In this document: one piece after another, positions 1 through 49,240 of the stretch | Layout: each line of letters opens with the position of its first letter | Position numbering within the stretch: the first letter of the stretch is position 1 | NCBI GenBank assembly: GCA_043781235.1 | Contig: JAYWBT010000182.1 | Span: forward strand, 140 to 64,139 | DNA from: Deltaproteobacteria bacterium | Lineage (GTDB): Bacteria > Myxococcota > Myxococcia > Myxococcales > 40CM-4-68-19 | Direction of reading: 5' to 3' | Length of the DNA stretch: 64,000 nt | Translations under genes and position numbers: made by a program | Notes under the pieces: generated by a model | Database searches by the model: none | Seen by the model: only the letters and a program-made list of their open reading frames with translations | Told to the model about the DNA's origin: nothing

Positions 1-3000
1 CGCCAGGGGCTCGCCGCGTCGGCGGTGGCCGGGACGGCGGTGATGGTCCTGCTCCCGTACTCTAGGACATAGAACCAGCGACCCGCGGCGTCGGTGGCGA
101 TCGACACCGGGCCAATCTGCAGCGGATGGATCTCTGTCTCGATGGTGGACTGGCCCGGCCGGTAAGCACGGCCGACATACGCGTTCTCGTAGGTGATCAT
201 CGACCATCCTCCGGCGGCGCTGTACGCGACCCGGCTGGACGAGCTGACACCCAGGTCCACCACAAACTGCGGTTGCGTGCCGGAATCCGTCACGACGGTG
301 GTGGTCCAGATGGCGAGTCTCTTGGACTGGCCGACCCCGTCGATGATCGCGTAGAGCGATTCCGATTTCTTGTCGGGCGACGGGACCAGCGCGAGATCGT
401 CGTGCCCGAGCCCCGCGATCGTCCCGTTCAGAGGCAGGGCGAAGGACCGGTGCGCCGCCGCCGGGGTGGCGCTGACTCCGAGGAGTTGATCGAAGGCGAC
501 CGGGTTCATGTCGCTGCTGTGCGCACCGGCGTAGAGAACAGTGGTGCCGCCCAGCCCGGAGGCCACCAGGTGACCGGTCGCAAAGAACGACGACAGCTGC
601 GTCGGAGCCGTCGTCGCGCCCGGATTGAACTGGTAGATCCCGAGACCGCGAGCCGCCGCATAGACCAACCCGGGCGACGCGTCGCTGGTCGCGAGGGTCA
701 CCAGCTTCATCAGCGGGCACGGCACCTGGTTGGTGTTCCAGCTGAGCGTTCCGTCGGCAGCGACGGCGCCGACGACGAACACGCTGTCGACCTTGGCTTG
801 ACCGGTCCAGGCGATCGCGTAGATGTCCTTGTCGTTGCCGACGGGAGCGAACGCGATGTCCTGGACGTCGGCGAGGGCAACCGGGAAGTCGACCGACGCG
901 ATCAGCTTCTTGCCCACGAGATCGTAGACGTTCACCTTGCCGTCGCCGCCGCAGGTAAAGGCGAGCGGCCGGCCGGGGTGGACCCGGATTCGGCTGTGCA
1001 TACCCGCGCCGAAGATCGTCGTCGGATGAGGCGTATTCGCAGGCAGGTTGCTGCGAAGGATGTCATAGGGCGGGTAAACGAGGTCGTCGAACATCGCGCA
1101 GAAGGTCTTGCTCTGGAGCAAGTTCTTGAGGCCATCGAAGAAGGCGCGCAGGATTGCGTCCTCCTCGTTATCGGCGCCCGGCGCGGACGGATCCTTCTCG
1201 CCCGAGATGAAGATGTGGATGCTGTTGGTCTGATTCGCGATCTGCCACAACAGGTTCATGAGCGCGATCAGACGCTTGGCCGCCAGCCCGACCGGCCCGT
1301 CTGCCGCGCCGGGAGTCAGCTGGCCCTTCACGAACTTGATCACGTTCAGGATGCAGTCCTTGTAGATGTCGAGAAGGATGGTGCCATCGAGCAGCTCCTC
1401 CCAGGGATTCTCCGGGTGGACATACGTCTCGGCATGGAAGGCGCGGCGCTTGTCGATCCAGAGGCTGACCGTGCCGTCGGCGAGCTTCCCGTCGGAGTTG
1501 CGCGACAGCGTGCCCTCGGCGACCGCAAGATCGCCCAGCGCGAGCGCAGTGATGGTGTCGTCGGCAGTTGACTCGAGCCGGATGTCGGCGCCCGTCGGAT
1601 GGAGGGCATAGCCATCGCGCACGATCACCGCCTCGCGCGGCTTCCCGAGCTTGTGGGCATCCGCATAGTCGGTCGTCATGCATTGCACCTGCAGGCCGCA
1701 GACCACGCCCCAGCCGTGGAGATGCTGGTTGTGAAACTCGAGGTCATCGTCCACCAGGTCCTGGAACCGCCGGCGGCAATCGGCCACTTCTGCGGTCTTC
1801 AGATCTGCATGCCAGTTGATCAGCGCCAGCGGCACCGCCCAGCGCTTCGGCCCATCGGGTGACTGGAACCGGGCGAGGCGCGCCGGGAGGAACGCGTGCG
1901 GCATTCCCGGCCGCACTCCGATCATCCAGTAATCGCCGGGGGCGCGAGCAGCGCCCTTGGTGTACACGCGTACACCGGTGCCGGTTCCATTCGACGCGAC
2001 CAGCTCAGTGGCGGTGTTCTCGTCGGCCGCGAAGGCGAACTGGTTTTCCCAGATTCGCAGGAACACCTGCGGCGGGAGGTGTTCGACGAAATCAGCCGGC
2101 AACGCCGCGTCCAGCGTCACTGTCCGCACGGTGGGGTCGTAGCTATCGACTTGCATCACCGCGCCGACCGCGGAGGCGATGCGCGCCCCATCTCCGAAGT
2201 CCACGGCGGTACCCAGTACCTCCACCCACTGCCTCGCGCTCGGTTGGTGATAGACGTCGACGGGAATGCCATCGAGCCGGAGCGTCCTCGGGCCCGTGAG
2301 GGTCACGCGATACAGGAAGGACGCATTGTCCCAGCCCCAAAGCATCCTTTCGTCGCCGGTCACCTGCACGCGAATCAACTGGTTCTCCGGGCCCAGAAAG
2401 CCGGTCTGCGCGGTCGGTTGACACGCGTCGCCGGCGGCGGTGGGGTCGGGAACGAGGTCGACACGCAGCATCATCGTCGAGTCGAGCCGCATGGTCGCCG
2501 GATCGAAAGCGACGCGCCCCGGGTAGGCCACCTCCAGCGCGTCGGAGAACGCGGTCTCGCAGCCCGAATCGTTGACGGGCAGCCGCTGTACCCGCTGGAT
2601 CAGGCGCGTGCGCGACGCGGTGTCGGGACCGCCGAGAGCGACCTCGCGCAGCGCCGCATCCTCGACTGCGCAAACCTCCTGCTCGGTAACGGCGAGGTAG
2701 ATCGCCTCGCTGAACGGCGCGGTATTGGTCGGATAAGGGGCCGGGCGCCCGGTGGGGTAGTCGACCCATTCGGTCCGCTGCTGTCCGAGGTACGTCGCCT
2801 GCGGCTCAGCGTTGCGGACCCGCATGCCCCCGACGTAGAGCGTCCCTTCCCCGATGTCGAAATCGAACGGCCCGGAGCCGGCGGCGGGTACCGAGATCTC
2901 GAACCCGCCGTCCGGCGCGCCGGTCGGCCCGATGATGTCGATCAGCTCGGCGCGCGACTCCTCGGCGCGGATCTCCTCGGCCTCGTTCGCGTCCGCCTCG

Positions 3001-3083
3001 ACGGTAACCCGCCCTTGCTGCGAAACGATCGACCGGTACATCCTGCCGGCATCGTAGGATCTGCGCGCTCTATCGCTGCCCAT
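1..3083 (-). CDS. Large distal CIS/baseplate-associated protein, 3' end beyond window (DUF6519-like N-terminus, beta-propeller-like C-terminal repeats)
   Basis: My own reverse-strand translation from ATG 3083 reads MGSDRARRSYDAGRMYRSIVSQQGRVTVEADANEAEEIRAEE... The track lists no minus-strand ORF with a stop in this frame between 1 and 3083, so the frame stays open to base 1. The gene is missing from the track because its stop lies outside the window. It starts 13 nt downstream of the gpI-like gene on the same strand and has high GC3. The later part has repeated strands (KVNVYDL, DIYAIAW, LVYAAARGLGIYQF, LYAIIDG, RWFYVLEYG) typical of propeller blades. Confidence 0.75.
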   Translation of the reverse strand, partial: MGSDRARRSYDAGRMYRSIVSQQGRVTVEADANEAEEIRAEESRAELIDIIGPTGAPDGGFEISVPAAGSGPFDFDIGEGTLYVGGMRVRNAEPQATYLGQQRTEWVDYPTGRPAPYPTNTAPFSEAIYLAVTEQEVCAVEDAALREVALGGPDTASRTRLIQRVQRLPVNDSGCETAFSDALEVAYPGRVAFDPATMRLDSTMMLRVDLVPDPTAAGDACQPTAQTGFLGPENQLIRVQVTGDERMLWGWDNASFLYRVTLTGPRTLRLDGIPVDVYHQPSARQWVEVLGTAVDFGDGARIASAVGAVMQVDSYDPTVRTVTLDAALPADFVEHLPPQVFLRIWENQFAFAADENTATELVASNGTGTGVRVYTKGAARAPGDYWMIGVRPGMPHAFLPARLARFQSPDGPKRWAVPLALINWHADLKTAEVADCRRRFQDLVDDDLEFHNQHLHGWGVVCGLQVQCMTTDYADAHKLGKPREAVIVRDGYALHPTGADIRLESTADDTITALALGDLAVAEGTLSRNSDGKLADGTVSLWIDKRRAFHAETYVHPENPWEELLDGTILLDIYKDCILNVIKFVKGQLTPGAADGPVGLAAKRLIALMNLLWQIANQTNSIHIFISGEKDPSAPGADNEEDAILRAFFDGLKNLLQSKTFCAMFDDLVYPPYDILRSNLPANTPHPTTIFGAGMHSRIRVHPGRPLAFTCGGDGKVNVYDLVGKKLIASVDFPVALADVQDIAFAPVGNDKDIYAIAWTGQAKVDSVFVVGAVAADGTLSWNTNQVPCPLMKLVTLATSDASPGLVYAAARGLGIYQFNPGATTAPTQLSSFFATGHLVASGLGGTTVLYAGAHSSDMNPVAFDQLLGVSATPAAAHRSFALPLNGTIAGLGHDDLALVPSPDKKSESLYAIIDGVGQSKRLAIWTTTVVTDSGTQPQFVVDLGVSSSSRVAYSAAGGWSMITYENAYVGRAYRPGQSTIETEIHPLQIGPVSIATDAAGRWFYVLEYGSRTITAVPATADAASPW

Positions 3084-3095
3084 TCAAGACCCCTG

Positions 3096-5501
3096 TCAGG
3101 TTACGTGGATGACCACCGGCTCAAGCCCGAGCGGCAGGTACTCCTGGTACTTGATGAGGAGGCTGCGCTCCTTGACCGCGCTCTTCTCCCGCGAGAAGGC
3201 CCCCATCTCGGAGCCGTCCTCGGCGCCCCCCGCAATCGCGCTGCTCGCGGTGGCAAGGAGCTGCGCGTACTCGGGCCGCCCGAATTCGCGCGACGCGAAC
3301 AGCCCGGCGCGCGGCCGCTCCGGCACGCTCTCGTATTGCCGCGGCAGGACGCTGCCGGTGGAATACGCGCTGAAGCGCACGCAGCCGTGCTGGCAGTCGT
3401 CGACACCGACGAAGTCGTGGAGGATGCATTCGCTTGCGTCCAAACGGTGGACCTGCGCCCAGCCGAGGACCGTGCAGCGCGAGAGCGCGACCTGACCGGT
3501 GCTCAAGGAGATCGCCAATGCCTCGTAATCCGCCCCCTGCACGATGCTGTCGCGCACCGCGACCGACTCGACCAGGCCCCGGCTACCATCGGGGGCTCGC
3601 TCGGTGAGGATCGGTCCGGTGATGCAGCGCTCGATCTCCAGCAGCCGCACCCTGCCCCGGATCGACAACCGGGTCGCCGCCAGCTTGCGGCCATCCGCGG
3701 CAAGTCGCCATCCGGGTCGAGGAGGAGCCGGGTTCCAGCTCCCGGGGTCGAGCGTGCAACACGAGAGGGTCACCCGGTCGAACGAGCCTTGCAGCACGAG
3801 GTCACAGCCGCCGCTGATGAAGAGGCCGCGGAGCGCGAGCGTCGCGTCGCCTCTTCCGGTGAACACCCACCTGGCGGCATCCGGGCGGATGACCGGGCGC
3901 TGCTTGTTCTCCGCGCGCAGCTCGACGTGGTCGATGAGATCCAGATCGGCGACCGTCGGATAGGTGACCGAGTCGCCGATCACGACCGTGCCGCTGAGCG
4001 CGCTGCTGCTTGGGTCTAGGTGCAGCAGCGCCGGCGCCAGCGGAACCCCCTCGTTGACGAGGGTGACCGGCAACGGCGGCTCCTCTTCCGACGCTCCCGG
4101 GGCGAGGCGATCGTAGGCCCCTGCACCGATCTCGGACGAGAAGCCGTGATGGTAGCTCACGCGGAACGGTCCGTCGGTGGGCGCGGCGGGCCAGACGATC
4201 CTCCCGCGCTCCGCATCGATCCACGGCCTGCCCGCCCGCTGGCGCGGATCGGATGAGATCTCCACCGCTGGAATCAGATCGTAGAGGGAGCCGAGCTTGC
4301 GGTACACGGCCAGCGAGCTCGCAGGAGCATCCGGCCGCGGGTCGCGATAGAGATCGAGCAGCGCGACCTTGATCAGATCCGCCGTGATCGGCCCCGGGAG
4401 CTGGTGCGGCTGCGGTGAGACCCACTGGTCGCCGAAGGGCCGAGCGCCGGCCGCGAAGAGGGGGATGTCCCGCCCGGTCGGGTCGAAGGTGTACTGGTTG
4501 GGACAGGTCTTGTCCCTGACCGGCGTGACCTGCGCGACCGGCAGGCTCTTCAACCGCCACAAGAACACGCCGAGGCGCGGGATGTCGTGCCAGCCGGTCA
4601 TTCCCCGGCCCCTCCGGACGTCGGCGGTGTGGAAGAACTCGTCGAAAGGGGTGTTGGTCAGGGCGGCACCGTGCACGTTGCGCAGATCCGCAAGGCCACC
4701 AGCACCGGTGAGAGTGCGCGCGCCGATCAGCCCCTGCGCCAGCTGCAACCGCAGGCGCGGATCGGCGGTCACCACGAAGGTAAAGGTGTCGTTGAGGACG
4801 AAGCTCGGCGTGCCGCCACCGTTGACCAGCATCACCACGATCGTCCCGCCACCCGGCGGGTCGAGGGTCGCGCTCGAAGCAGTGCCCTGCGAGACCCAGC
4901 CCGCTCCGTCGATGCTGGTCGACCAGGAGGCCACCGCCACCTGGCCGGCGACGTCGATGCTCACCGAAATGCTGTGATTGTTCAGCGGCGAGCCTCCGAG
5001 CCTCAGGGTGCCCGAGCTCGCGCCCGCGTGAGCGACGGCCGAAAATGTCGGCAGCACAGGAAAACCGATCGCAGGGTCGAGGCCGTGCCGGGTGCGCCCC
5101 AGCCGATGGAAGAACTCGACCGCGCGCGCGCTCCAGCCGGTGATGTCGCTGGCGAGCTCTTCGAGGAGGCCGATGGTGCCCTTGCGACGCCGGTAATAGA
5201 TGGTCCTGGCGACGTCGACTCGTCGCCCACGCGCGTCGAGACTGGCAACCAGATTGGTTTGCAGGAGCTCGCCCAGGTAGGCGATGACCCAGTCGTCGCA
5301 GGTCTCGATCGACTGGTCTTCCCAGAGGCGGTCGATGCTGCGGCGAACGACCGCGGCCTGTGCACCGACGCGCTCGACCAGCTCCCGGAGCGGGCCTTTG
5401 CGATTGAAATCGTCCGAGTCCTCGGCGCGATAGATCGCCGGGAGCAGGTTCCAGAGCTTCTCGGCGTACCAGGCCTCGTACCGATCCGGATCATTCGCCA
5501 T
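3096..5501 (-). CDS. Baseplate wedge protein, phage P2 gpI / Afp12(gp7)-like tail protein
   Basis: ORF 3096..5621 trimmed to ATG 5501 (MANDPDRYEAWYAEKLWNLLPAIYRAEDSDDFNRKGPLRELVERVG...). The LPxIYRxxD N-terminal signature is typical of gpI-type tail proteins in phage-tail-like clusters. The start overlaps the upstream stop (5491) by 11 nt. Confidence 0.75.
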   Translation of the reverse strand: MANDPDRYEAWYAEKLWNLLPAIYRAEDSDDFNRKGPLRELVERVGAQAAVVRRSIDRLWEDQSIETCDDWVIAYLGELLQTNLVASLDARGRRVDVARTIYYRRRKGTIGLLEELASDITGWSARAVEFFHRLGRTRHGLDPAIGFPVLPTFSAVAHAGASSGTLRLGGSPLNNHSISVSIDVAGQVAVASWSTSIDGAGWVSQGTASSATLDPPGGGTIVVMLVNGGGTPSFVLNDTFTFVVTADPRLRLQLAQGLIGARTLTGAGGLADLRNVHGAALTNTPFDEFFHTADVRRGRGMTGWHDIPRLGVFLWRLKSLPVAQVTPVRDKTCPNQYTFDPTGRDIPLFAAGARPFGDQWVSPQPHQLPGPITADLIKVALLDLYRDPRPDAPASSLAVYRKLGSLYDLIPAVEISSDPRQRAGRPWIDAERGRIVWPAAPTDGPFRVSYHHGFSSEIGAGAYDRLAPGASEEEPPLPVTLVNEGVPLAPALLHLDPSSSALSGTVVIGDSVTYPTVADLDLIDHVELRAENKQRPVIRPDAARWVFTGRGDATLALRGLFISGGCDLVLQGSFDRVTLSCCTLDPGSWNPAPPRPGWRLAADGRKLAATRLSIRGRVRLLEIERCITGPILTERAPDGSRGLVESVAVRDSIVQGADYEALAISLSTGQVALSRCTVLGWAQVHRLDASECILHDFVGVDDCQHGCVRFSAYSTGSVLPRQYESVPERPRAGLFASREFGRPEYAQLLATASSAIAGGAEDGSEMGAFSREKSAVKERSLLIKYQEYLPLGLEPVVIHVT

Positions 5502-8322
5502 GGCGCGCGACCTCCGCGCTGACGTGGAGGCGGTCTCCACGAAGCAGATAGAAGTTTCCCTCGCCAGGCGAGTGGCGTTTTCCGGAGTCCAATCGCAACT
5601 GGTCGGCCATCTCGAAGCCAAGCCCGCGCGCGGACCACCAGGCGTCGAGGCGGTCTAAGATTGGGACCGGCACCCGAATCCAGACGCGGAATTCCAATCC
5701 GCGGACCGCGACCACGCCCGGGACGCGCAGGCAGGCGTCATAGATGTAGCTGTCGTAGACGATCTGGCCGATCTGGACGACCTCGGTCCCGAAAGGCTCG
5801 GCACGCGGGTCGAGCAGCGCCGTGATGACCGCGGCCTGGACGAGGTCCGGGTCGTACGCTGGATCGACCTCCAGCGTGAGCCTGAGATCGGGATACAGCG
5901 GCGCCGCCAGCGCGACGAGGACCGGCCGATTCGGATCGGCGAACGCGCGGAGCGCCTCGGTGGCTGCCGCGACCACAGCGTCATCGTCCCCGACAAAGAC
6001 CTTGACCAGGCTGCGCTGGGAGGCGCCGTCCCAGCTGAAGTAGGACCGCGCCCGCCTCACCCCGGGCGTCTGTGCCGCGACCGCTTCGTAGTCGTCGCCG
6101 GAGACAGCGCGGCCGAAGGTGAGCACCGAGCGCGGCGCGTAACGGCGGACCTGTTCAGGCGGATCGGGATCGGCGCCGCCGCCCGGCGCGACCGGATTCT
6201 CGATCGCCTGGAGCCCCGGCTGGGGCTTGAGGATCGAGGTGAGCGTCCCGACGGGAGGCACCGCGGCGCCGCTGCCGTAGCGGTATTGAGCGACCACGTT
6301 CTCCCTGCCGGCGGGCAGCCTTGCACCGTTCTCGCCATCGCCGAATCGGACGTGGGTCTTCTGCTCGTCGTCCTCGCGGGTGACGAACACGCGTGCGTCG
6401 GGCGCCACGCCATAGAAGCTGGGGACTTCGCGCCATTCGATCCAGTCGACGCGGACCCGCAGCGTGCTCCGGTATCCGTTGAACGATCGCGGACCGGTAC
6501 CGGCCAGATAGGTGAGCGGCGAGCGCTTGAGCACGAACTCCTGCCCGATCAGGGTGGGGTCGCCGCTTCCGAGGATCTCGCTCGAGACCGTCTGGCCGCG
6601 GGAGACCGGCAACAGGTGCAGCAGCGCCCGCAGCGGGGGAACGAGATCCTTCCCGAAAGTGCTGCCCGTCGTCCCGATCCAGCCGGGGACGCCGTTGCCG
6701 ATCGCGTCCGTGACCAGCACCGGCGCCGTCCGTCCGGCCGGCAAGGCCGGCGGCGCGGGCACGTCCACGGCCGTGGGTTTGCCGGGAGCGGGAGGGCCGA
6801 TGAGCTGTCCGACCTCCTTCCAGCCGTAATGGATCACGATGGCCTTCAGGCCTTGGTCGCGTTGGGCCATCCTGTCGAGGTCACCATTTGCGGCGAAGGT
6901 GAGCTTGGAATGAGGGATGGGAATCGGGGGCGAAGAATTGCTGGGCGGGCCAATCGGCGGTCCCTGGCCGTACCGGTCGGACTGGGGTGCGTTGGCGTAC
7001 CATATCTGCTCGGAATATCCGGTGACCTTCACGAGCTGCGGGCGCGGAGTTTCGAAGTAATCGAGCAGTTGTTGCAGCAATGCTCCTAGGAATCCGCCAC
7101 TGATCTGCTTGAACAGCCAGTTGAGGCCCCCTTCGGCCGTCTTCTCGAACAGCACGGGATCGCCCGCGCTGATCCCTCGCGTGATCCCCTCCAGATGTGC
7201 GGCACCGAGCTTGTTATCGAGCAGCGAGGCGCCGGCAAGGACGCGTGGATCCTCGATAGGCTGGCTGGGGGGCCCGCCGCCGAAGATGAAAGCGAACGGA
7301 CTGAATAGGCCCTCCAGGAACTGTTGCGCCAGGCTAGCGTCCATCAACGAGGGGTCCGAAGAGCCAGGGTAACGGTCGTGGTACAGCCAGAGATGCGCGA
7401 GCTTTGTGGCCCGGAGGATGCGGTACTGGCTGTGTGCCAGGCCCTCGGGCAAGTTGTGCGCGGAGACGGCCGTCACCTCGGTGTACGCGTGCTCGACCTG
7501 GTCCCAGAAGGGAATGACGTCGCGGACCGTGACCAGCGCATAGCCGGATTCGCCGAGTCCCGCGGGCGAGCCGCTCGGCTGCTCCCCGTCCCAACTCCGC
7601 TTCAAGACCAGGATGACGTCGTCGCGCTTCACGTTGGTGATGGCACCATCGAGAGTGAACTTGAACAGCTCCCCTTCCTGGACCGTGAGCCCGGGCCCCG
7701 GGGGCAGCAGCACCCTGGCCGGAAAAAAATTGACGAAGAAGCCGGTCGCGTCCCTCGGGGCGGGGCCTGTCCAGGTCGTCGTACCCAGCCCGCCCGGGGC
7801 CGAGGAGAACCGCGCCGAGAAGGGCAGCGGTCGCCCGAGCTCGCCAATCTCGACATCGCCATCCAGCTCGAAGATCTGCGCCGGCTCACCCGGCGCGGAC
7901 CCACCCTCGAGCGGGAACCCGCTCGGAATGACGAATGACCGCGGGCTATCCGTCAGCGCCGCGACGACGCCGGTCGCGCCGATGCCAGGACGCGGCCGGT
8001 AGCCCAGCAGCCGGATGATGCGCCGGACATCCTCGGGGCGGACCGCCGTGCGCAGGAGCACTTCCTGGAGCGCGCGCTCATTGTAGAACGCGAGCACGTC
8101 GGCGAGGTAGGCCCACCACTCCAGCATCTGGAGAGCGAGGTCGCTCCCCTCGGTCGGGTGCCAGTCGGTGAGCGCCGTCTCGCCTGGACGCGAGCGCAGC
8201 AGCGCATGGCGGAACGCCACATAGTCGCCGACGCGGTAATCGAGGGAAGCGCGGCCCGGCGGATTGAAGATGGTCCGGGGATGAACGAAGACCTCGCAGG
8301 GGCACTCTGTCGGGGCGCTCAT
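5491..8322 (-). CDS. Baseplate J / gp6-like assembly protein (paralogue 2)
   Basis: ORF 5491..8658 trimmed to ATG 8322 (MSAPTECPCEVFVHPRTIFNPPGRASLDYRVGDYVAFRHALL...LQMLEWWAYLADVLAFYNERALQE). ATGA overlap with the upstream stop at 8319-8321. The N-terminal architecture matches the preceding gene. Confidence 0.75.
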   Translation of the reverse strand: MSAPTECPCEVFVHPRTIFNPPGRASLDYRVGDYVAFRHALLRSRPGETALTDWHPTEGSDLALQMLEWWAYLADVLAFYNERALQEVLLRTAVRPEDVRRIIRLLGYRPRPGIGATGVVAALTDSPRSFVIPSGFPLEGGSAPGEPAQIFELDGDVEIGELGRPLPFSARFSSAPGGLGTTTWTGPAPRDATGFFVNFFPARVLLPPGPGLTVQEGELFKFTLDGAITNVKRDDVILVLKRSWDGEQPSGSPAGLGESGYALVTVRDVIPFWDQVEHAYTEVTAVSAHNLPEGLAHSQYRILRATKLAHLWLYHDRYPGSSDPSLMDASLAQQFLEGLFSPFAFIFGGGPPSQPIEDPRVLAGASLLDNKLGAAHLEGITRGISAGDPVLFEKTAEGGLNWLFKQISGGFLGALLQQLLDYFETPRPQLVKVTGYSEQIWYANAPQSDRYGQGPPIGPPSNSSPPIPIPHSKLTFAANGDLDRMAQRDQGLKAIVIHYGWKEVGQLIGPPAPGKPTAVDVPAPPALPAGRTAPVLVTDAIGNGVPGWIGTTGSTFGKDLVPPLRALLHLLPVSRGQTVSSEILGSGDPTLIGQEFVLKRSPLTYLAGTGPRSFNGYRSTLRVRVDWIEWREVPSFYGVAPDARVFVTREDDEQKTHVRFGDGENGARLPAGRENVVAQYRYGSGAAVPPVGTLTSILKPQPGLQAIENPVAPGGGADPDPPEQVRRYAPRSVLTFGRAVSGDDYEAVAAQTPGVRRARSYFSWDGASQRSLVKVFVGDDDAVVAAATEALRAFADPNRPVLVALAAPLYPDLRLTLEVDPAYDPDLVQAAVITALLDPRAEPFGTEVVQIGQIVYDSYIYDACLRVPGVVAVRGLEFRVWIRVPVPILDRLDAWWSARGLGFEMADQLRLDSGKRHSPGEGNFYLLRGDRLHVSAEVARHGE

Positions 8323-10676: not shown

Positions 10677-10677
10677 T

Positions 10678-11064: not shown

Positions 11065-11067
11065 CGG

Positions 11068-11909: not shown

Positions 11910-11931
11910 TGCGGCGCCTTTCTCTTCCGGG

Positions 11932-13047: not shown

Positions 13048-13049
13048 GG

Positions 13050-13325
13050 TCAGCGGTCCTTCGCGGGGACGCCGACGAGGTCGCGCGCGGCCAGCGCGTC
13101 GGGGGCGATGGCGTCGCCGGCGTCACACAGCCGCCAGAACGCGGTCGCGTCGCCGAGGTAGCGCGAGGCGATCAGATCGGGACGCTGCGTGTCCACCCGC
13201 GGATGAAACCCGCGAATGGCCGGCCGCAAACGGATGGGCAGCCGGGTGACGGTGAAGGTCGCCCCGCTCGCCGTGCGCGCGGTATACGTGCCGGCGTTCG
13301 CGTAGCGGCTATTGGGGTAAAACAT
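13050..13325 (-). CDS. LysM-like small tail protein (P2 gpX-like)
   Basis: 91 aa. RPDLIASRYLGDATAFWRLCDAGDAIAPDALAARDLVGVPAKD resembles the degenerate LysM found next to hub genes in CIS loci. There is a 2-nt gap to the gpD-like start. Confidence 0.55.
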   Translation of the reverse strand: MFYPNSRYANAGTYTARTASGATFTVTRLPIRLRPAIRGFHPRVDTQRPDLIASRYLGDATAFWRLCDAGDAIAPDALAARDLVGVPAKDR

Positions 13326-13337
13326 GGTTCCTCATGG

Positions 13338-13982
13338 TCAAGGGAGCATGCCGATCACCGCGCGGGCTGCGTCGCCGAGGTTGGCCACGGCCCCCGCCAC
13401 GCGCAGGCCCTGGGTGTAGTGGTAGGCTCCGCTGGCGATCGGGCCCAACGGTCCGGAGACCGACCGCAGCTCGCTCGGCGTGAGCACGCGCAGCTCGATT
13501 TGCGCATCGGCATGCGTCGGATTGAGATCTTCGTCGTAGAGCTTCTCGGTGATCGTCAGGCTGGTCACCCGGACCGGCACGATCCGGGCCGCCCCCCAGA
13601 CGAACAACACCGTTGGCACCTGGGCGCTCGGGGTCGGTCGGCTCTCGCCGGCGGACGCCGGCAGCGGCGGACCCGAGGCGGTGGGAAAGAGCAGCATCTC
13701 CAGCGCGGCGAGCCGCGGATGGATCCCGAAACTCTTGGCCATCGCTCTGACCGCGAGATCCGGGTCAGCCAGCTGGTCGGTGACGTCCAACGAAACGCTG
13801 AACGAGAAGGTCTCGCCCGGCTCGCCGGTCACGGCGAGCGGGTTCGATCCGGACTGCCCCGATGCGGTCGCGGCCTGCGACCAGACATGGCGCAACGTCT
13901 CGGGGTTGTACTGGAAGATGACGACGTTCGGCACCCCGACCTCGAAGGCCGACATGTACTCGACCAGCGCGCCCTTCTTCAT
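13338..13982 (-). CDS. Tube-initiator / CIS tube-like protein (Afp5/Afp7-class)
   Basis: ORF 13338..14126 trimmed to ATG 13982 (MKKGALVEYMSAFEVGVPNVVIFQYNPETL...VLFVWGAARIVPVRVTSLTITEKLYDEDLNPTHADAQIELRVLT). This is the LxFxWG...v.i.slti.e..fd..l.P..A.v.l.l motif of CIS tube-domain proteins. ATGA overlap with the upstream stop. Confidence 0.6.
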   Translation of the reverse strand: MKKGALVEYMSAFEVGVPNVVIFQYNPETLRHVWSQAATASGQSGSNPLAVTGEPGETFSFSVSLDVTDQLADPDLAVRAMAKSFGIHPRLAALEMLLFPTASGPPLPASAGESRPTPSAQVPTVLFVWGAARIVPVRVTSLTITEKLYDEDLNPTHADAQIELRVLTPSELRSVSGPLGPIASGAYHYTQGLRVAGAVANLGDAARAVIGMLP

Positions 13983-14212
13983 GACCACCTCGCCAGCGCG
14001 TAGGACATCTCGGCCGCGATCCGTCGCGCCATCGACTCGAGCGCTTCTCCGGGGCGAGGTGCGACGCTCACGCGCAGCCGATCGGTGGCGAACGCCGCGC
14101 CGGGCGCATCCGCCGACGCCAGGCACTCCGCGACGAGTCCCGCGAGACGGCGCGCGTCCGCTTCGGAGAGCCCCTCCAGTCGAAGAGTCAGGCGATCGAC
14201 GTGCAGGTCCAT
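13979..14212 (-). CDS. 77-aa hypothetical CIS-embedded microprotein
   Basis: MDLHVDRLTLRLEGLSEADARRLAGLVAECL... Its stop overlaps the next start as ATGA (13979-13982) and its start lies 4 nt after the ATPase stop. GC3-rich. No recognisable family. Confidence 0.55.
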   Translation of the reverse strand: MDLHVDRLTLRLEGLSEADARRLAGLVAECLASADAPGAAFATDRLRVSVAPRPGEALESMARRIAAEMSYALARWS

Positions 14213-14216
14213 TGCC

Positions 14217-16328: not shown

Positions 16329-17221
16329 GGCACGTCCAGCCAGATCTCCATCAGCGGCTTGCCCGCGTCTGGCCGCACGGAGAGGAGGTATCGTCCCGGC
16401 GGAGTGGATTGCGGAATCTGGACCTCCAGCGTGGTCGGACTGACAACACGAAACTGGCCGGGCGTGAGTGGGCTGTTGGTGGTCGCCTCGAGCGGGAGCG
16501 CGCGAATCCGCGCCTCGGTCCCGCCGACGACGAAGCCCGTGAAGCTCCGGTCGGTGATGATGATCGTGGCGAGCCCCGTCGCGGAGGCGGTCGCGGTGAG
16601 CTCGATCGATCCGGGGATGATCTCGAACGCCTCGACCTCGTGGGGCCGCTTGAAGTCGGGCGCTTTCAGCACCGGTTTCGGCGCCTTCGGCGGCGGCGGC
16701 TCGATGAAGATGACGCTGGCCCGGTAGACCGCCGAGAGCCGCATCGGGCTGCTGATCGACTGCCAGAGCCTACCGGTCTCGTCGATCGTCTGGGGCTCGA
16801 GGGTGAGCGTAAACTCCTCGCTCCGATCTCCCGGGGGCACCGTGGCGCTGATGCTGGAGTGCTCGTGGAAGCACTTGAGGGCGATGCTCATCGCCTGCTG
16901 CTCCGCGATGTAGGACTTCGACGAATGGGCCGTGACCAGGTAATAGAGCGTGAGCGCGAGCGGCTGTTCGGGGATCTTCTGTGCGCTGCCGCCCGTCGGA
17001 AATGTGTTGCGATAGAATTTGTCCGGGGCGACGTGGAACAGGTAGACGCTGACCTGACAGCCGTCCTCCGCCCGCGCGGCGTCCGGCGCCAGGCCGGTCC
17101 AGGAAAAAGTGGGCGCGGAGCCCGGGTCGTCGACCCATAGCTGGGACGCGCGCACGCACGCTTTCAAGTGGTCGATCAGCCGATCGGTCACGATGGAGAG
17201 ATCGAGGAGTCCCAGCGTCAT
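16325..17221 (-). CDS. DUF4255 / Pvc16-Afp16-like tail terminator (cap) with C-terminal Ig-like extension
   Basis: ORF 16325..17680 trimmed to ATG 17221 (MTLGLLDLSIVTDRLIDHLKA...VSVYLFHVAPDKFYRN...LALTLYYLVTAH), the DUF4255 signature. The C-terminus (...PGRYLLSVRPDAGKPLMEIWLDVP) looks like an Ig/IPT-like beta-sandwich. Confidence 0.75.
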   Translation of the reverse strand: MTLGLLDLSIVTDRLIDHLKACVRASQLWVDDPGSAPTFSWTGLAPDAARAEDGCQVSVYLFHVAPDKFYRNTFPTGGSAQKIPEQPLALTLYYLVTAHSSKSYIAEQQAMSIALKCFHEHSSISATVPPGDRSEEFTLTLEPQTIDETGRLWQSISSPMRLSAVYRASVIFIEPPPPKAPKPVLKAPDFKRPHEVEAFEIIPGSIELTATASATGLATIIITDRSFTGFVVGGTEARIRALPLEATTNSPLTPGQFRVVSPTTLEVQIPQSTPPGRYLLSVRPDAGKPLMEIWLDVP

Positions 17222-17226
17222 GGCCG

Positions 17227-18216
17227 TCAACCCTGCCGAAGACCGATGGCCGACGTGAACCCGCGCGCCAGCTGGGTGGTCGGTGCGACGCGCGCGGCGG
17301 CGGGCGGGCGCGGGACCGACGGCGGCGCCGGCACCGGGAGCAGGTGCACCTCGACGGCTCCGATGTGGATCCCGGTGAACCGCTCGGGACCGGACACGGC
17401 TGCAGATCGCCCGCGAGGCGCCGCAGCGGCGCCCGGGCCCAGCGGCTCGCGAGGAGGCGGCCCCCGCGGCGGTGTCGCACGCGCTCCCGTTCCGCGAGCA
17501 GCCATCTCGCGCGCGGCCGTCTGCCGGGTGACGATCTCGCGGATGACCGTCTCGCGGATCGGCCCGGCGCGGTGCGCGGCTTCCGTCCTGGCAGGCTCGC
17601 GCCCGGGACGCGCCGCGGAAAGATCGCGCTCGGAGTGAGGGCGGGCGATCGGAGCGGTTTGCTCCCCGGAGGTGGTCCATCTCACCGCCGCCGCGAGGGC
17701 GACCGCCAGCGGGTCCGGGCCGAGCCGGACGTTGCTCCTCGGTTCCGTCCGGAGCCGCTCGGTTTGCGCTCTCGGGATCGGCTGGGTCCGTGGCGCGGCC
17801 GCGGGCGGTTCCGTTGGCTGCGACTGGAGAGCGTCCGCCGGGGCCGAGTCATGGGCGCTCGCCATTGGCAGGGACTCGTCGCGCCGGGCCGCCGGTGCGA
17901 GTCCGGCGTCGGAGGGCGCGGCGGGAGCCGCGATGACGGCGGGTGCCGCGATGACGGCGTGTGCCGCCGGCTCTGCCGCGATCGCCGGGTCATCGCTCCA
18001 TATATGTTGCGGGTCGATCTGCGCGGTTGCGCGCGGCCAGGTCGGGCCGGCGGGCGGCAACGTCAAAGGGGCTGTCCTCGGTACCCGTGCGGCAAACGCG
18101 GGCTCGTCCGGCGGCGTCGCGGGCAGCGACCGCACCAGCCGCCGCGGGCGCAGCAAGCCCGGGGTGTCCTGGACCGCTCGGCGCGCGACTTGCTGGAGAT
18201 ACGTTCCGCGCGGCAT
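17227..18216 (-). CDS. Pro/Ala-rich hypothetical protein; tape-measure (Afp14-like) candidate
   Basis: ORF 17227..18645 trimmed to ATG 18216 (MPRGTYLQQVARRAVQDTPGLLRPRR...). 329 aa and largely low-complexity, with an ordered C-terminus ERFTGIHIGAVEVHLLP...LARGFTSAIGLRQG. It sits between the tube module and cap/ATPase. One-nt overlap (TGATG) with the upstream gene. Function is inferred from position only. Confidence 0.55.
   Translation of the reverse strand: MPRGTYLQQVARRAVQDTPGLLRPRRLVRSLPATPPDEPAFAARVPRTAPLTLPPAGPTWPRATAQIDPQHIWSDDPAIAAEPAAHAVIAAPAVIAAPAAPSDAGLAPAARRDESLPMASAHDSAPADALQSQPTEPPAAAPRTQPIPRAQTERLRTEPRSNVRLGPDPLAVALAAAVRWTTSGEQTAPIARPHSERDLSAARPGREPARTEAAHRAGPIRETVIREIVTRQTAAREMAARGTGARATPPRGPPPREPLGPGAAAAPRGRSAAVSGPERFTGIHIGAVEVHLLPVPAPPSVPRPPAAARVAPTTQLARGFTSAIGLRQG
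17927..17962. repeat. 2 x 18-nt tandem repeat inside the tape-measure candidate
   Basis: gccgcgatgacggcgggt / gccgcgatgacggcgtgt, encoding AVIAAP AVIAAP on the minus strand. Confidence 0.7.
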
Positions 18217-19010
18217 CACGCCCTGGTCCTTTCCTGCTGCGCCTGCTGGGCTTCGGCCAGCTCCACGTAGCGGGCCCGGCGCGCCGCGGGGAGCGCGAGG
18301 ATCTCCGCCTCGGACCAATGGTAGTGGTGCGCGATCGCGCAGACGTCCTCGTAAACGAAGGCCGCCTGCTCGCGCAGCTCGCTCAGCGTGTACTGCAAGG
18401 GCTCGAAGCTGGCCTCGACGGTCGCGCCGCACTCCGGGCAGATGCCCTGGAGCTCGGAGTAGAGGCTCGGGGCCATCGCCTCCATCGCCGCCTCCACCTG
18501 CCGTTGCTCCCGCTCGGTGATGTCCGCGGGGCGGACGCAGCGCCGCAGCAGCGCCTGCTCGGGCTGCGGCGCGCGCGCGATCGCGAGCTGATCGGCGGCT
18601 CGCGGAAGCCGGAACTCGAGGTTCTGGTCCTCCAGCCGGTACCATCCGTCGTCTCCCGAAGGCAGGACGCCGGGCGGCGCGGCGGGCAGGTGATGCTCAA
18701 GATACGCCTGGATCGAGAACGTGATGTCGACGTGCGCGTGACAGCCGGGAGCGGTGCAGACCTCCTCCGCGCTGACGATGTCGCCCACCACCCGCCGGCG
18801 CAGATGGAGAAGGAGCGCGTCGACGTCGCCGATCGGCAAGGTCGCAGGATCGAGCGGGGCGCCGTCCGCGCAGCTTGCGACGAGTGACAGGAGCGCGAGA
18901 GCCACGCCCAGGTCCAGCGGACCTGCCTCGAGCAGCAAGATGTCCTCTGCGCCGGCAGGCAGCCGCAAGACGACGTCCCTGCCTGCTACCGGAAGCCGGA
19001 CGGCTGCCAC
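18216..19010 (-). CDS. Hypothetical CIS protein with two Cys pairs (possible Zn-ribbon); assembly-factor candidate
   Basis: 264 aa. Cys pairs CTAPGC and CPEC, and a conserved-looking tail VYEDVCAIAHHYHWSEAEILALPAARRARYVELAE. It lies between the tube and the tape-measure candidate and starts 1 nt after the tube stop. Confidence 0.65.
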   Translation of the reverse strand: MAAVRLPVAGRDVVLRLPAGAEDILLLEAGPLDLGVALALLSLVASCADGAPLDPATLPIGDVDALLLHLRRRVVGDIVSAEEVCTAPGCHAHVDITFSIQAYLEHHLPAAPPGVLPSGDDGWYRLEDQNLEFRLPRAADQLAIARAPQPEQALLRRCVRPADITEREQRQVEAAMEAMAPSLYSELQGICPECGATVEASFEPLQYTLSELREQAAFVYEDVCAIAHHYHWSEAEILALPAARRARYVELAEAQQAQQERTRA

Positions 19011-19011
19011 G

Positions 19012-19527
19012 TTACGTCTTCTTCTCGTCCGGCTCTACGATGGTGAGATCCCGCTCCCACCCCTCGTTCTCCAGCTTGACGTGCTGGAGGGCGATGGCGT
19101 TGCCTCCCGCATCGAGATCGGGGATCGCCTGGTATTCCGAGACCCAGCAGCGGTAGACGATGTATTGGTGCACCGGCTGACCAGCCTCGTTTTGAAGGAC
19201 GATCCGCACGGTCTTGCGGAGGTCCCCGAGCGACGACTTGGGTGCCCCCTTGTCCAGCACCTGGGACGCGTTGGCCCAGTTCTCGAAGTCGGAATCATGG
19301 GTCACGCCGCGCTCGAGCGTGATGGCCTCGTACTTGGTGCGCCCGATCCCCTTCAAGGTGATCGCGTTGCCCCCTTCCTTGTAATCGATGACGTCGGAAG
19401 ACCGCTTCATGCCCGTCACCTTGCTGACGCCGGCGACGGGCTGGACCGATTCCCCGAGGTAAACGAGGAAGCGGTAGTTCTTGTACGGATCGAAGCGATT
19501 GATGTTGACGGAAAATGGCTTGCTCAT
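19012..19527 (-). CDS. Tail tube protein (T4 gp19-like / Afp1-like)
   Basis: ORF 19012..19782 trimmed to ATG 19527 (MSKPFSVNINRFDPYKNYRFLVYLGESVQPVAGVSKVTGMKRSSDVIDYKEGGN...), the typical conserved phage-tail-region tube signature. Confidence 0.9.
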   Translation of the reverse strand: MSKPFSVNINRFDPYKNYRFLVYLGESVQPVAGVSKVTGMKRSSDVIDYKEGGNAITLKGIGRTKYEAITLERGVTHDSDFENWANASQVLDKGAPKSSLGDLRKTVRIVLQNEAGQPVHQYIVYRCWVSEYQAIPDLDAGGNAIALQHVKLENEGWERDLTIVEPDEKKT

Positions 19528-19537
19528 GGTCGCCCCC

Positions 19538-21142
19538 CTACGCCTGCACCTGACCCGCGATCTGCGAGATCTTGATGATGACGAACTCGGCCGGCTTGAG
19601 CGGGCGGAACCCGACCAGGATGTTGACGATACCGAGATCGATGTCGCTCTGCAGCGTGGTGCTCGCGTCGCACTTGACCCGGAACGCCTGGCTCGGCGAG
19701 GCGCCCTGGAAGGCGGCCTGACGGAAGAGCGAGAGCATGAAGTTTTCGATGCTGATGCGTATGGCGGACCACAGCGGCTCATCGTTGGGCTCGAACACCA
19801 CCCATCCGAGATTGCGCAGGAGCGTCTGCTCGATGAACAGCGCGGTGCGCCGCACCGGCACGTATCGCCACTGCTCGAATGCGGGGTTGGCGGTGACGGT
19901 GGTTCGTGCGCCCCAAACCACCGTCCCGCTGCCGGGAAACGACCGCAGCACGTTCACCCCGAGCGGGTTCAGGGTGCCCTGGCGCATGTCGGTCATCCTC
20001 CCCTCGTCGACGACGCCGGTGGTGTTGAGGATGGAGGTCTCGAGACCGGCAGGCGCCTTCCAGACTCCACGGTTGGTGTCGATGCGGGCGCAGATTCCGG
20101 CCACGAATCCGCTGGGCGGCAGGGCGATGACCTCGTTGGTGATGGGATCGATCGTCTTGAGGTAGGGGAAGTAGAAGGCGCCGTTGGGTACGGCGGTCGG
20201 CACGGTGCCGTTGAGGACGGCGTCCGCGATCTTGGGCAGGTCTCTTCCTGCCCCGTCGGCGGTCAAGTTGGGAGGCGGATCGATGATGAAGAAAGCCCGC
20301 TTGTGCTCGCAGAAGCCAAGGGCGGTGCTCCAGATGCCCGCGTCGGCGATCCCGGGGACGACGAGGAGGTTGAAGATGTCCACCTTGTCGAGCGAGCTGT
20401 CGGTCTCGAAGACGTCGTGAAAGTCCTGCGGGCTGAACGTCGTCCAGCCACCCGCGAGGGTGGCGGGGACCGTCAAGGCCGACAGCTCGATGGCCCCCGA
20501 CGTGAAGCTGCCCGGATACCGACCAAGGACCTGGTCCTGCGGAGCCACCTGCACGAGCCGCGACAACGCGAGGCGTTTTTCGATGAAGTTCGAGTCCGTA
20601 ATGGTCGCAGGGTCCGCGCCAGCGATCTTCACGCCTCGGTAGGACTCCACCTGCGAGCCGAAGGTGATGAGGATGTCCGCGGTATCGTTCGCCGGGGATG
20701 GCCTGACGTTGCCGATCGTGATCGTCATCCGGGTCACGTCAGTCAGCTGCCTGGCCGTGAAAGTGATTCCGCTTGTGCTGGCGCTGGCGGGCGAGATGGG
20801 CTGGGGGGAGATCGTTGGCGGGACCTGGGAATCGTAATATTGCGGCTGCAGGCCGACCACATAGGCGTCGGAGCCGCCGTTGAGGAAGAACTGGTTCACC
20901 GCGTACGCGACGTTGGAGTCGATGAAAGTGCTGCGATACAGCCCGCCGAAGATGCGCTCGTAGTCAGTGAAGTTGAAGATCCGGATTGCCCTGCCCCACT
21001 CGCCTCTTTCTGCGCACTCGCCCCTGAATGGATGCGTGTAACCAACGAAAGCGGTGATCGAGGTCGGCGCGGCCGTGATGGCGTGCGACGAGCTGGGTAC
21101 CTCTTCGATATAGAGGCCGGGATACGAGACGGAAACGGGCAT
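19538..21142 (-). CDS. Contractile tail sheath protein (Afp2-4-like)
   Basis: 534 aa. MPVSVSYPGLYIEEVPSSSHAITAAPTSITAFVGYT... is the canonical sheath N-terminus. A strong AAGGAG SD lies upstream of ATG 21142. Confidence 0.9.
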   Translation of the reverse strand: MPVSVSYPGLYIEEVPSSSHAITAAPTSITAFVGYTHPFRGECAERGEWGRAIRIFNFTDYERIFGGLYRSTFIDSNVAYAVNQFFLNGGSDAYVVGLQPQYYDSQVPPTISPQPISPASASTSGITFTARQLTDVTRMTITIGNVRPSPANDTADILITFGSQVESYRGVKIAGADPATITDSNFIEKRLALSRLVQVAPQDQVLGRYPGSFTSGAIELSALTVPATLAGGWTTFSPQDFHDVFETDSSLDKVDIFNLLVVPGIADAGIWSTALGFCEHKRAFFIIDPPPNLTADGAGRDLPKIADAVLNGTVPTAVPNGAFYFPYLKTIDPITNEVIALPPSGFVAGICARIDTNRGVWKAPAGLETSILNTTGVVDEGRMTDMRQGTLNPLGVNVLRSFPGSGTVVWGARTTVTANPAFEQWRYVPVRRTALFIEQTLLRNLGWVVFEPNDEPLWSAIRISIENFMLSLFRQAAFQGASPSQAFRVKCDASTTLQSDIDLGIVNILVGFRPLKPAEFVIIKISQIAGQVQA

Positions 21143-21184
21143 GAATTCTCCTTACGTCCTGGCGCAAATCATCGGACAGAAGCT

Positions 21185-22006
21185 TCAAGCGCTTGCGGGC
21201 AGGGTCGCTCTTGCCGGGGTGGCCGCGGTTGGCTCCGTTCCGCCAGCGAGATTGATGGAGCCCGGTTTCGGCCGCTTGTATCCATCCGGCGCGGAAACGG
21301 TCACCGCGAACCCCAGTTGAGGATTGAGGTCGCCAAGCCCGCTGACGGCAGTCACCTTCTTGGTCCACGTCACGGTGAGCGTGAAGGTCTTGGAGCCGGT
21401 GGCTGGCTGCTGGACGTTCGAAACCGCGATCGTCCATTCTGTGGGAGCGGAGCCAGTTCGCGCCGCCACAAGTGTAAACGACGTGGTCGGATTCCCGCCC
21501 GTGACGGGTCCTGCGACCGTCCAGTTCGGCGGATTCGTTGCTGCCACGAGAACAGCGGAACCCGCGATTGGATCCGGCGCACTGGGGGCGACTTGGGCGC
21601 GCACGAGGCTTGGCCTGGTCCCGGGAGGCCCGCTGGTGCCCCCGATGACGTTCGGCAGGGAACCGAGGGTCAGTCCCTCATACGTGTCCGTCTCGGTGAC
21701 CGTGACATCCACTTTGGCCGGATCGGTGTTTTGGGCCACCGTCACCACGATGTTGTTGCCCGTCGATCCCGGGGCCACGGCGGTGAACACCATCGCGATG
21801 CCAGGAGCGGGCACCTTGCCTGGACCGAGTCGCCCTTGCGCAACCAGATACTTCAGCCAATCCTGAAACGCGCCAGTGACTTCTGGATTGCTGGAATTGA
21901 CCCCATTCCCATCGAAGAAGATCTCGGCCAGCGGAAGAGAAAGCTGCTGGCCGGCATCCGTGACAAAAACGATCGGCCCATCTCCAACTGCTGCGATTTG
22001 CGTCAT
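21185..22006 (-). CDS. Hypothetical Thr/Val/Pro-rich protein, first gene of the CIS structural operon
   Basis: ORF 21185..22066 trimmed to ATG 22006 (MTQIAAVGDGPIVFVTDAGQQLSLPLAEIFFDGNG...), preceded by a GGGGGA SD. The beta-rich C-terminal half includes TFTLTVTWTKKVTAV. No family recognised. Confidence 0.6.
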   Translation of the reverse strand: MTQIAAVGDGPIVFVTDAGQQLSLPLAEIFFDGNGVNSSNPEVTGAFQDWLKYLVAQGRLGPGKVPAPGIAMVFTAVAPGSTGNNIVVTVAQNTDPAKVDVTVTETDTYEGLTLGSLPNVIGGTSGPPGTRPSLVRAQVAPSAPDPIAGSAVLVAATNPPNWTVAGPVTGGNPTTSFTLVAARTGSAPTEWTIAVSNVQQPATGSKTFTLTVTWTKKVTAVSGLGDLNPQLGFAVTVSAPDGYKRPKPGSINLAGGTEPTAATPARATLPASA

Positions 22007-22884: not shown

Positions 22885-22895
22885 TCCGGCTCCGT

Positions 22896-26466: not shown

Positions 26467-26482
26467 CTCTCGCGACGCCGCT

Positions 26483-46636: not shown

Positions 46637-49240
<2,604 letters not shown>

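Follow-up and report, generated by a model that had tools for sequence, protein, structure and literature searches.

A lineage II-type contractile injection system locus with a DUF6519 fibre and flanking DUF4157 cargo genes in a Myxococcota chromosome

We analyzed a contractile injection system (CIS) locus on a 64,000-nt stretch of DNA, hereafter the window, from a Deltaproteobacteria bacterium of the Myxococcales (GenBank assembly GCA_043781235.1, contig JAYWBT010000182.1, positions 140 to 64,139 of the forward strand). The window sequence is also represented by a metagenome scaffold (ENA ERZ28573551, scaffold_502, 64,778 bp) and by a second assembly of the same sequence, L001, which reaches ~6 kb past window base 1. 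Open reading frames (ORFs) were called from codon-position G+C (GC3) and translation in DNA of ~68% G+C. The gene calls agree with independent public contigs bearing identical proteins, and those at 26-29 kb rest on our own ORF calling. The identity of the locus as a contractile injection system is close to certain. Its genes are listed below in window coordinates, with E-values following the profile names.

L001 16729-18483: g0, 584-aa DUF4157 cargo protein past base 1 (eCIS_core 2.4e-30)
1..3083, minus: g1, tail fibre with an N-terminal DUF6519 (eBAP5) anchor (DUF6519 3.4e-18)
3096..5501, minus: g2, Tail_P2_I-type (gpI-like) baseplate/fibre adaptor, 801 aa (by orthology; no direct Pfam match)
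5491..8322, minus: g3, second gp6/J-like wedge (Cis11b), 943 aa (TIGR02243 8.3e-48, Baseplate_J 1.9e-3)
8319..10676, minus: g4, gp6/J-like baseplate wedge (Cis11a), 785 aa (TIGR02243 5.4e-50, over its cut-off; Baseplate_J 6.7e-4)
10678..11064, minus: g5, gp25-like sheath initiator (Cis9) (GPW_gp25 1.1e-13)
11068..11400, minus: g6, PAAR-like spike tip (DUF4280, PAAR_H type), 110 aa (DUF4280 3.3e-4, under the gathering score)
11400..11909, minus: g7, gp5/gpV OB-fold spike, C-terminal half of a split VgrG (Phage_base_V 4e-22; VgrG_rel positions 372-513)
11932..13047, minus: g8, gp27/gpD-like hub, N-terminal half of the split VgrG (Cis8a) (NCBIfam VgrG_rel positions 273-346)
13050..13325, minus: g9, conserved 91-aa protein (no Pfam match; hhalign of a 20-sequence alignment)
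13338..13982, minus: g10, tube initiator/adaptor (Cis5/Cis7 class), 214 aa (CIS_tube 1.4e-4)
13979..14212, minus: g11, conserved 77-aa protein (no family match)
14217..16328, minus: g12, AAA+ ATPase (Cis15/Afp15), 703 aa (AAA 7.1e-30 at residues 489-609)
16325..17221, minus: g13, tail terminator/cap (Cis16/Afp16, DUF4255), 298 aa (Pvc16_N 1.6e-29)
17227..18216, minus: g14, Pro/Ala/Arg-rich "slot" protein, 329 aa (between g15 and the cap; no Pfam match)
18216..19010, minus: g15, predicted T4 gp26/gp51-like baseplate-hub assembly protein with four invariant Cys (Pfam T4_baseplate 1.1e-6)
19012..19527, minus: g16, inner tube (Cis1/Afp1), 171 aa (Phage_T4_gp19 6.6e-33; TIGR02241 2.9e-35, over its cut-off)
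19538..21142, minus: g17, sheath (Cis2/Afp2-4 class), 534 aa (Phage_sheath_1 1.6e-12, Phage_sheath_1C 6e-7)
21185..22006, minus: g18, Thr/Ala/Gly/Val-rich protein upstream of the sheath, 273 aa (synteny, weak domain matches)
22120..22884, minus: g19, partner directly downstream of g20, 254 aa (gene call confirmed on public contig L043; no Pfam match)
22896..25910, minus: g20, cargo/toxin candidate of ~1004 aa with an N-terminal eCIS_core (DUF4157) and a HELAH motif (eCIS_core 1.5e-25)
26483..27028, minus: g21, Ala/Gln-rich, 181 aa, of uncertain locus membership (no Pfam match)

Between 1 and 22006, GC3 ORF calling and translation gave 18 intact, co-directional minus-strand genes. A preliminary description, made from the sequence alone, had listed 13 tight junctions in this array. 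All 13 are stop/start boundaries (5491/5501, 8319/8322, 10676/10678, 11064/11068, 11400, 13047/13050, 13979/13982, 14212/14217, 16325/16328, 17221/17227, 18216, 19010/19012 and 19527/19538), with overlaps of 1-11 nt or gaps of at most 10 nt. The gaps outside that list measure 12 nt (3083/3096), 22 nt (11909/11932), 12 nt (13325/13338) and 42 nt (21142/21185). The same description took 1-22006 for a complete operon, which is wrong at both ends: cargo genes lie at 22120-25910 and past base 1. With cargo and partner genes at both ends, the CIS region is thus ~31 kb rather than 22 kb. The 113-nt gap between g19 and g18 (22007-22119), the widest in the gene array, has a TTGACC hexamer and an inverted repeat of 6 bp (CTTGCT...AGCAAG); an internal promoter or attenuator that serves the structural genes may lie here. 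A sigma-70 promoter scan gave no match, and a sigma-54-like TGGC-N8-TGC match upstream of g20 was indistinguishable from background.

Profile searches bear out the sheath, tube, DUF4255 cap, AAA+ ATPase, spike, gp25-like protein and two J-like proteins of the preliminary description, and the tube initiator, gpD-type hub and PAAR-like tip are borne out through their orthologues. The sheath matches the Streptomyces CIS sheath over its full length (PDB 8bky, 3.7e-59), and it also matches a haloarchaeal sheath (9ezm, 9.4e-59). The cap has 372 homologues at E<=1e-5. The ATPase carries an N-terminal winged helix (WHD 6e-7) and two P-loop regions, with a weaker AAA_33 match at residues 262-308. It is followed by g11, which was seen by tblastn at this position in 20 of the 38 related loci described below, and small annotated genes stand there in loci L042 and L046. 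The wedge protein g4 matches Cis11 of PDB 9gtp at 3.7e-14. Sequence searches of the PDB gave no match for g15, the cap, the fibre, the PAAR-like tip or either of the two cargo proteins.

Since VgrG_rel is covered at 273-346 by g8 and at 372-513 by g7, the spike is split into a gp27-like and a gp5-like gene. Orthologues of g8 match Phage_GPD in 14/17 cases (best E 4.3e-10), and g8 itself is 47% identical to an L042 protein that matches this family at 1.4e-10. The signal for the spike tip is weak for g6 alone, with DUF4280 found in 6/16 and PAAR_motif in 1/16 orthologues; DUF4280 has been classed as PAAR_H (PMC8651086). For the tube initiator g10, CIS_tube was detected in 14 of 18 orthologues (best E 1.5e-6), and residues 123-181 align to the tube-like half of the LysM protein of the Streptomyces clavuligerus CIS (E 0.005). 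By hhalign, the neighbouring g9 matches P2 gpX (E 0.013) and the whole LysM domain of the same S. clavuligerus protein (E 0.009), the two matches sharing one register and the latter being collinear with the g10 match. Thus, g9 and g10 align to adjoining parts of one protein, as fits a split Afp7-type protein with a tube-like and a LysM half, and g9 is probably a LysM/gpX-like module that represents the split-off C-terminal half. The LysM-like protein of the preliminary description therefore stands only as a suggestion, at hhalign E-values of ~0.01. A single-sequence AlphaFold2 model of g9 was unusable (pLDDT 40), and tblastn of g9 against phages gave no match.

At the downstream end of the array, the adaptor g2 is 42-66% identical over three segments to its S. 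anthocyanicus orthologue, which clears the Pfam Tail_P2_I threshold in the segment that is 66% identical to g2; the gpI-like assignment holds through this orthologue. The fibre gene g1 is cut by the window edge, with 1027 of 1346 aa inside and the full length taken from L001, and its middle region gives faint beta-propeller hints. DUF6519 corresponds to eBAP5, an N-terminal baseplate-anchoring domain in 658 tail-fibre genes of extracellular CIS (eCIS), and eBAP5 systems have Tail_P2_I adaptors in place of Afp12, with multi-fibre loci enriched in Myxococcota (PMC12923769, 2026). The pairing of g1 and g2 fits this description. The earlier statement that no Afp13-type fibre is visible is thus literally true but misleading, since g1 is a DUF6519/eBAP5 fibre.

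At the other end, g18 was detected upstream of the sheath in 17/38 related loci. It matches Phage_sheath_domII weakly (E 0.026 for the protein itself; 3/14 orthologues, best E 0.0018), and BLASTP aligns it to sheath residues 115-171 at E 0.048. These matches point to a beta-sandwich protein that is possibly derived from the sheath, or a reduced sheath paralogue. In L007, L008 and L010, from Acetobacteraceae and Nostoc-type cyanobacterial metagenome-assembled genomes (MAGs), a tandem second sheath paralogue stands directly upstream of the sheath, and no g18 was detected.

We surveyed related loci by scanning one genome per species with a cap-protein profile and reading the gene order of the resulting 38 loci by tblastn with the window proteins. 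As far as the fragments reach, all 38 have the order (g18)-sheath-tube-g15-(slot)-cap-ATPase-(g11)-tube initiator-g9-hub-spike-(PAAR)-gp25-J-J, where the members in parentheses vary between loci. The carriers include Rhodospirillales, Acetobacteraceae, Pseudolabrys, Methylococcaceae, Kofleriaceae (Myxococcota), Nostoc, Microcoleus, Leptolyngbya, Acidobacteriota, Chloroflexia, Chthonomonadaceae, Binataceae and many Actinomycetota, among them Mycobacterium and Mycolicibacterium isolates. The same order is present on the RefSeq plasmids NZ_CP109103.1 of S. anthocyanicus and NC_019957.1 (pMYCSM01) of Mycobacterium sp. JS623, on both of which it runs on to a Tail_P2_I protein and a DUF6519 fibre where the sequence reaches, and in the Kofleriaceae MAG JBGQCL010000255. 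The preliminary description had called the module order unusual. Placement of cap and ATPase between tube and baseplate in 38/38 loci and on both plasmids contradicts this, and subtype-specific gene arrangements have already been described for lineage II (Chen et al. 2019, PMC6899500).

The S. anthocyanicus NBC 01777 locus on NZ_CP109103.1 shares the order from the gene upstream of the sheath to the fibre, with 35-66% identity gene by gene, and the closest locus found is that of a Rhodospirillales MAG (L004, JADJRE010000043), with 37-86% identity. In L004 (JADJRE010000043.1), several CIS genes fall into adjacent tblastn pieces and one translated match region contains stop codons; these breaks may be assembly frameshifts rather than real pseudogenes. 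The actinobacterial loci of the genome scan have no detectable PAAR gene, whereas the present locus has g6. A plasmid CIS of S. clavuligerus (NZ_CP065257.1) has the same parts list of cap, sheath, tube, LysM, gpD, gpV, gp25 and J, but with the cap first, sheath and tube duplicated, and LysM fused to a tube-like protein. This different order shows that gene order is a lineage trait. Afp/PVC systems (subtype Ia) belong to the same superfamily and share the tube, sheath, spike, gp25, gp6-like wedge, ATPase and cap. In Afp/PVC loci, afp14-16 (tape measure, ATPase and cap) follow the fibre, and there are a single VgrG, three sheath paralogues and an adenovirus-like fibre. By contrast, the locus studied here has cap and ATPase between tube and baseplate, a split VgrG and a DUF6519-type fibre; its sheath is similar to that of Afp/PVC in the C-terminal half only, and its gene set is not that of Ia.

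To count as an eCIS, a locus must have eight or more types of core subunit (Chen et al. 2019, PMC6899500). The locus encodes Afp1/5-type tube, Afp2/3/4-type sheath, Afp15, Afp16, Afp8, Afp9 and Afp11 proteins together with the DUF4157 marker. All its structural proteins are homologues of myovirus tail proteins and a tRNA-Gly gene lies 1.3 kb upstream, as might be expected of a defective prophage tail or R-type tailocin. This alternative is effectively refuted, because the locus carries three marks of eCIS (AAA+ ATPase, DUF4255 cap and DUF4157 cargo) and because its genes stay together as one set in different phyla, with no head genes among them. Pfam scans of candidate ORFs across the 64 kb and the 6 kb past base 1 found no capsid, portal, terminase, lysis (holin or endolysin), integrase or TssJLM gene, and the tRNA 3' end is not repeated. 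The preliminary claim that head, lysis, integrase and type VI secretion system (T6SS) membrane genes are missing from the 64 kb accordingly holds for the scanned ORFs, and also just past base 1. The families of a canonical T6SS (TssJLM, the TssB/C sheath and ClpV) likewise gave no match, the ClpB at 46628-49240 being a housekeeping ClpB 20 kb outside the locus. Together, our results support a chromosomal eCIS with all its core parts intact, not a prophage tail or T6SS and not of the Afp/PVC type, as had been proposed.

Judged by its gene composition, not by Afp11 phylogeny, the locus fits lineage II of dbeCIS and is closest to subtype IIa. According to the text of Chen et al. 2019 (PMC6899500), two afp11 copies occur in IIa and IIc only, afp8 is split in IIa, IIb and IIc, afp10 is absent only in IIb, and divergent afp12/13 are found in IIa and IIb and are absent from most IIc and IId. 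The locus has two TIGR02243 proteins (g4 and g3), the g8/g7 split, the DUF4280 protein g6, and g2/g1 as the afp12/13 class. Since two afp11, a split afp8, afp10 and divergent afp12/13 are all found, only IIa fits this text.

Two genes between tube and cap deserve attention in this lineage. The first, g15, is present in 36/36 related loci that span its position. Its AlphaFold2 model, built from a 38-sequence alignment, has a pLDDT of 95.9, and Foldseek gave 44 BFVD matches at E<=1e-3, down to 5.5e-9, with TM values of 0.36-0.58. These matches are predicted myovirus "baseplate hub subunit / hub assembly proteins" of the T4 gp26/gp51 type, in agreement with the weak Pfam T4_baseplate match of g15; the fold gave no match to solved structures in the PDB. 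Thus, g15 is a conserved core gene of its lineage, and we are confident in assigning its predicted fold to the gp26/gp51-like type.

The second is the slot gene g14, whose product consists of 21% A, 16% P and 12% R. Among the ORFs at the same position, a conserved C-terminal motif was found in 32 of 40 sequences scanned. In the 16 members with assignable starts, both ends are conserved, the N-terminus as M.R.sYL.qIA.R..L.PPR and the C-terminus as IG.IEV.i.PPP...LsRGf.s.FGLRQG, around a variable middle, so that lengths range from 249 to 445 aa; the Mycobacterium sp. JS623 homologue has the same end-conserved architecture. A phmmer search of 1.8 billion protein representatives with g14 alone returned just 29 relatives, so this is a fast-diverging family. 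In S. anthocyanicus (L042, 15100-15993), the slot gene lies directly before the cap and ends in ...VVFGLGQG*, and the gene table there shows only a 53-aa hypothetical protein. The slot-gene family looks under-annotated in public records, including RefSeq.

In papers on three model systems, the tape measure has been called absent from lineage II. It is tempting to speculate that g14 fills this gap and determines the length of lineage II CIS particles; we regard it as a tentative candidate and would not yet put the odds in its favour. The Pro-rich gene of the preliminary description is thus real, and its role as a tape measure is only suggestive. If g14 were the tape measure, g15 would act with it in hub assembly, an arrangement reminiscent of the T4 gene cluster 26-51-27-28-29.

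Both DUF4157 cargo genes flank the structural genes, and each is followed by a partner gene. DUF4157 marks eCIS toxins (PMC8213781). The start of g20 is uncertain: we chose the ATG at 25910, which has a GGA-rich stretch upstream, and the ORF is open to 26054. Its C-terminal part contains an RPDG...FVEVKG motif similar to PD-(D/E)xK nucleases, a resemblance at the level of the motif with no profile support. The partner g19 would be an immunity or chaperone candidate, since its position mirrors the pairs of toxin and downstream immunity gene in haloarchaeal CIS (PMC11566945). Past base 1, L001 shows that the fibre is followed by the 584-aa g0, a 348-aa partner, an ArsR regulator and an SBF-family transporter. 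Residues 406-469 of g0 form two very hydrophobic helices, which suggest a membrane-inserting payload, not an enzyme toxin. When the Pfam thresholds were relaxed, neither g20 nor g0 showed a toxin domain, and g14, g11 and g19 gave no match.

The payload parts of g20 and g0 and both partner genes have no homologues in the related loci, which is the look expected of exchangeable toxin modules. Orthologous loci carry different cargo at internal positions, after the ATPase or at the spike/PAAR genes, whereas the cargo of the present locus lies at its two ends. DUF4157 genes in L004, L007-L010, L014, L015, L022, L025, L028 and L046 occupy two recurrent internal insertion sites, one after the ATPase and the small protein, the other separating the spike gene from the PAAR gene. 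In an operon that is otherwise fixed, the place of the cargo appears to vary. Homologues of g21, with 32-41% identity, are found beside the three closest CIS loci (L004, L005 and L006).

We consider it rather probable that the locus encodes an injector that is released, finds its target by the fibre and brings toxins into other, probably bacterial, cells. This reading is favoured by the fibre, by the lack of an evident membrane anchor among the structural proteins, whose hydropathy shows no segment resembling a transmembrane helix, and by the DUF4157 cargo with its partners. We then propose a working model. The baseplate would assemble around the spike, aided by the gp26/51-like g15, and tube and sheath would polymerise until capped, their length perhaps being set by the slot protein g14. 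The ATPase may help to load the DUF4157-tagged toxins. The particle would be released, probably at cell lysis, and would bind its target through the fibre, whereupon contraction of the sheath would push the spike with its cargo into that cell. Kin would be protected by the partner genes, which points to bacterial targets, in competition or predation.

The haloarchaeal relatives suggest a different outcome. Subtype IIa, including Halogeometricum borinquense, shares with the present locus two Cis11, a split VgrG, Cis12/13-class proteins, Cis15 and Cis16, likewise has no recognised Cis6, Cis14 or Cis19, and carries DUF4157 toxins with downstream partners (PMC11566945). The only characterised members of this clade are membrane-bound and T6SS-like, and the locus studied here could accordingly encode a membrane-anchored, contact-dependent machine that fires from the producer into a touching neighbour. 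The sheath match to 9ezm (9.4e-59), the resemblance of the cargo and its downstream partners to haloarchaeal toxin-immunity pairs and the absence of detected lysis genes are all compatible with this. Myxobacteria also live in dense, contact-rich swarms. Nevertheless, we judge it unlikely. H. borinquense has a six-helix membrane anchor gene and structural genes split by an 8.7-kb cargo region, neither of which is found in this Gram-negative locus. No multi-helix membrane protein like Hbor_38620 is encoded in or beside it, strong hydrophobic helices being confined to g0, and the trans-envelope anchor that a Gram-negative envelope would need is not encoded. The large fibre gene, with its probable receptor-binding region, also argues against contact-dependent firing.

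The best full-length sheath match, 8bky (3.7e-59), leads instead to the S. coelicolor system of subtype IId (PMC10066040, PMC12237407), which belongs to lineage II as well and also has no recognised tape measure. By analogy, the CIS could be cytoplasmic and fire inside the producer, causing regulated cell death under stress or in development. No release mechanism is encoded, which would suit such a role. Myxobacteria undergo developmental lysis. Still, S. coelicolor has one Cis11, an unsplit VgrG (Cis8), no fibre and the membrane protein CisA, whereas the present locus has two Cis11, a split VgrG and an eBAP5 fibre, and fibre-bearing loci have been treated as likely extracellular (PMC12923769). 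Immunity-like partner genes, moreover, argue for kin protection and not for self-killing. We therefore hold self-directed firing to be quite improbable here.

Several points also weigh against the released injector and the subtype on which the comparisons rest. The mode of action is not readable from sequence, and none of the closest characterised relatives is a released eCIS of the classical kind: that of Streptomyces is cytoplasmic and causes cell death (IId; PMC10066040, PMC12237407), the haloarchaeal clade IIa CIS is membrane-bound and T6SS-like (PMC11566945), and the Anabaena CIS is thylakoid-anchored. Pfam scans of candidate ORFs in the window and the 6 kb past base 1 found no lysis cassette for particle release. 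The toxin activities, an immunity function of the partners, g14 as tape measure and a LysM fold in g9 are all candidate assignments. The subtype call comes from gene composition rather than Afp11 phylogeny, and Table 1 of Chen et al. 2019, unlike its text, gives afp12/13 for I and IIb only (PMC6899500).

The locus is thus an example of a known, catalogued lineage, and its "unusual" order is the standard layout of that lineage. Loci of identical architecture are common, horizontally spread over at least ten phyla and already in eCIS catalogues. The preliminary description had called the function of such systems essentially unexplored. This applies to Myxococcota, since there appears to be no experimental work on a myxobacterial CIS, but not to the lineage, whose relatives have been characterised in Streptomyces and haloarchaea, with a related CIS in Anabaena. 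The haloarchaeal plasmid pHBOR03 was not among the cap-protein matches in the plasmid collection. The locus is of value as a clean and intact case from Myxococcota that has both a fibre and two toxin/partner modules, and in which one could test for a part in predation or kin competition. For work on lineage II, it offers a candidate tape-measure family, a fold assignment for g15 and a putative split-off Afp7-type LysM module as a small gene, of which the candidate tape-measure family and the gp26/51-like assembly protein are the most useful leads.

The rest of the window consists of ordinary chromosomal genes, encoding tetratricopeptide repeat proteins, an FAD flavoprotein, hydrolases, LemA, ThiD, a C26 peptidase, HtrA, ClpB, SPFH proteins, an ammonium transporter, a GH18 enzyme and an E1 dehydrogenase. 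All organism-named matches of ClpB (76-86% identical) are Myxococcales or Deltaproteobacteria MAGs, which supports assignment of the host to Myxococcota, as proposed earlier.

The tRNA-Gly(GCC) gene (28338-28413, minus strand) lies upstream of the CIS region and points towards it with its 3' end, with a terminator-like hairpin at 28331-28299 (minus strand), a placement that has the geometry of a tRNA-targeted island. Neither an integrase nor a second copy of the tRNA 3' end was found in the window or in L001, and the genomic-island idea was set aside. The ~1.2 kb between g21 and the tRNA gene (27056-28300) contains no ORF with typical codon bias and no Pfam match, and the G+C content is lower, at ~64.5%, from 26001 to 28000. 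Further away, a plus-strand ORF beside clpB (49241-50809) combines a winged helix-turn-helix, HATPase_c_2 and the STAS-like DUF4325 in an unusual regulator-like architecture. At 52084-55220 on the minus strand, two overlapping stop-to-stop ORFs in different frames each match SPFH/Band 7, and a short ORF of very high GC3 lies beside them at 54191-54832.

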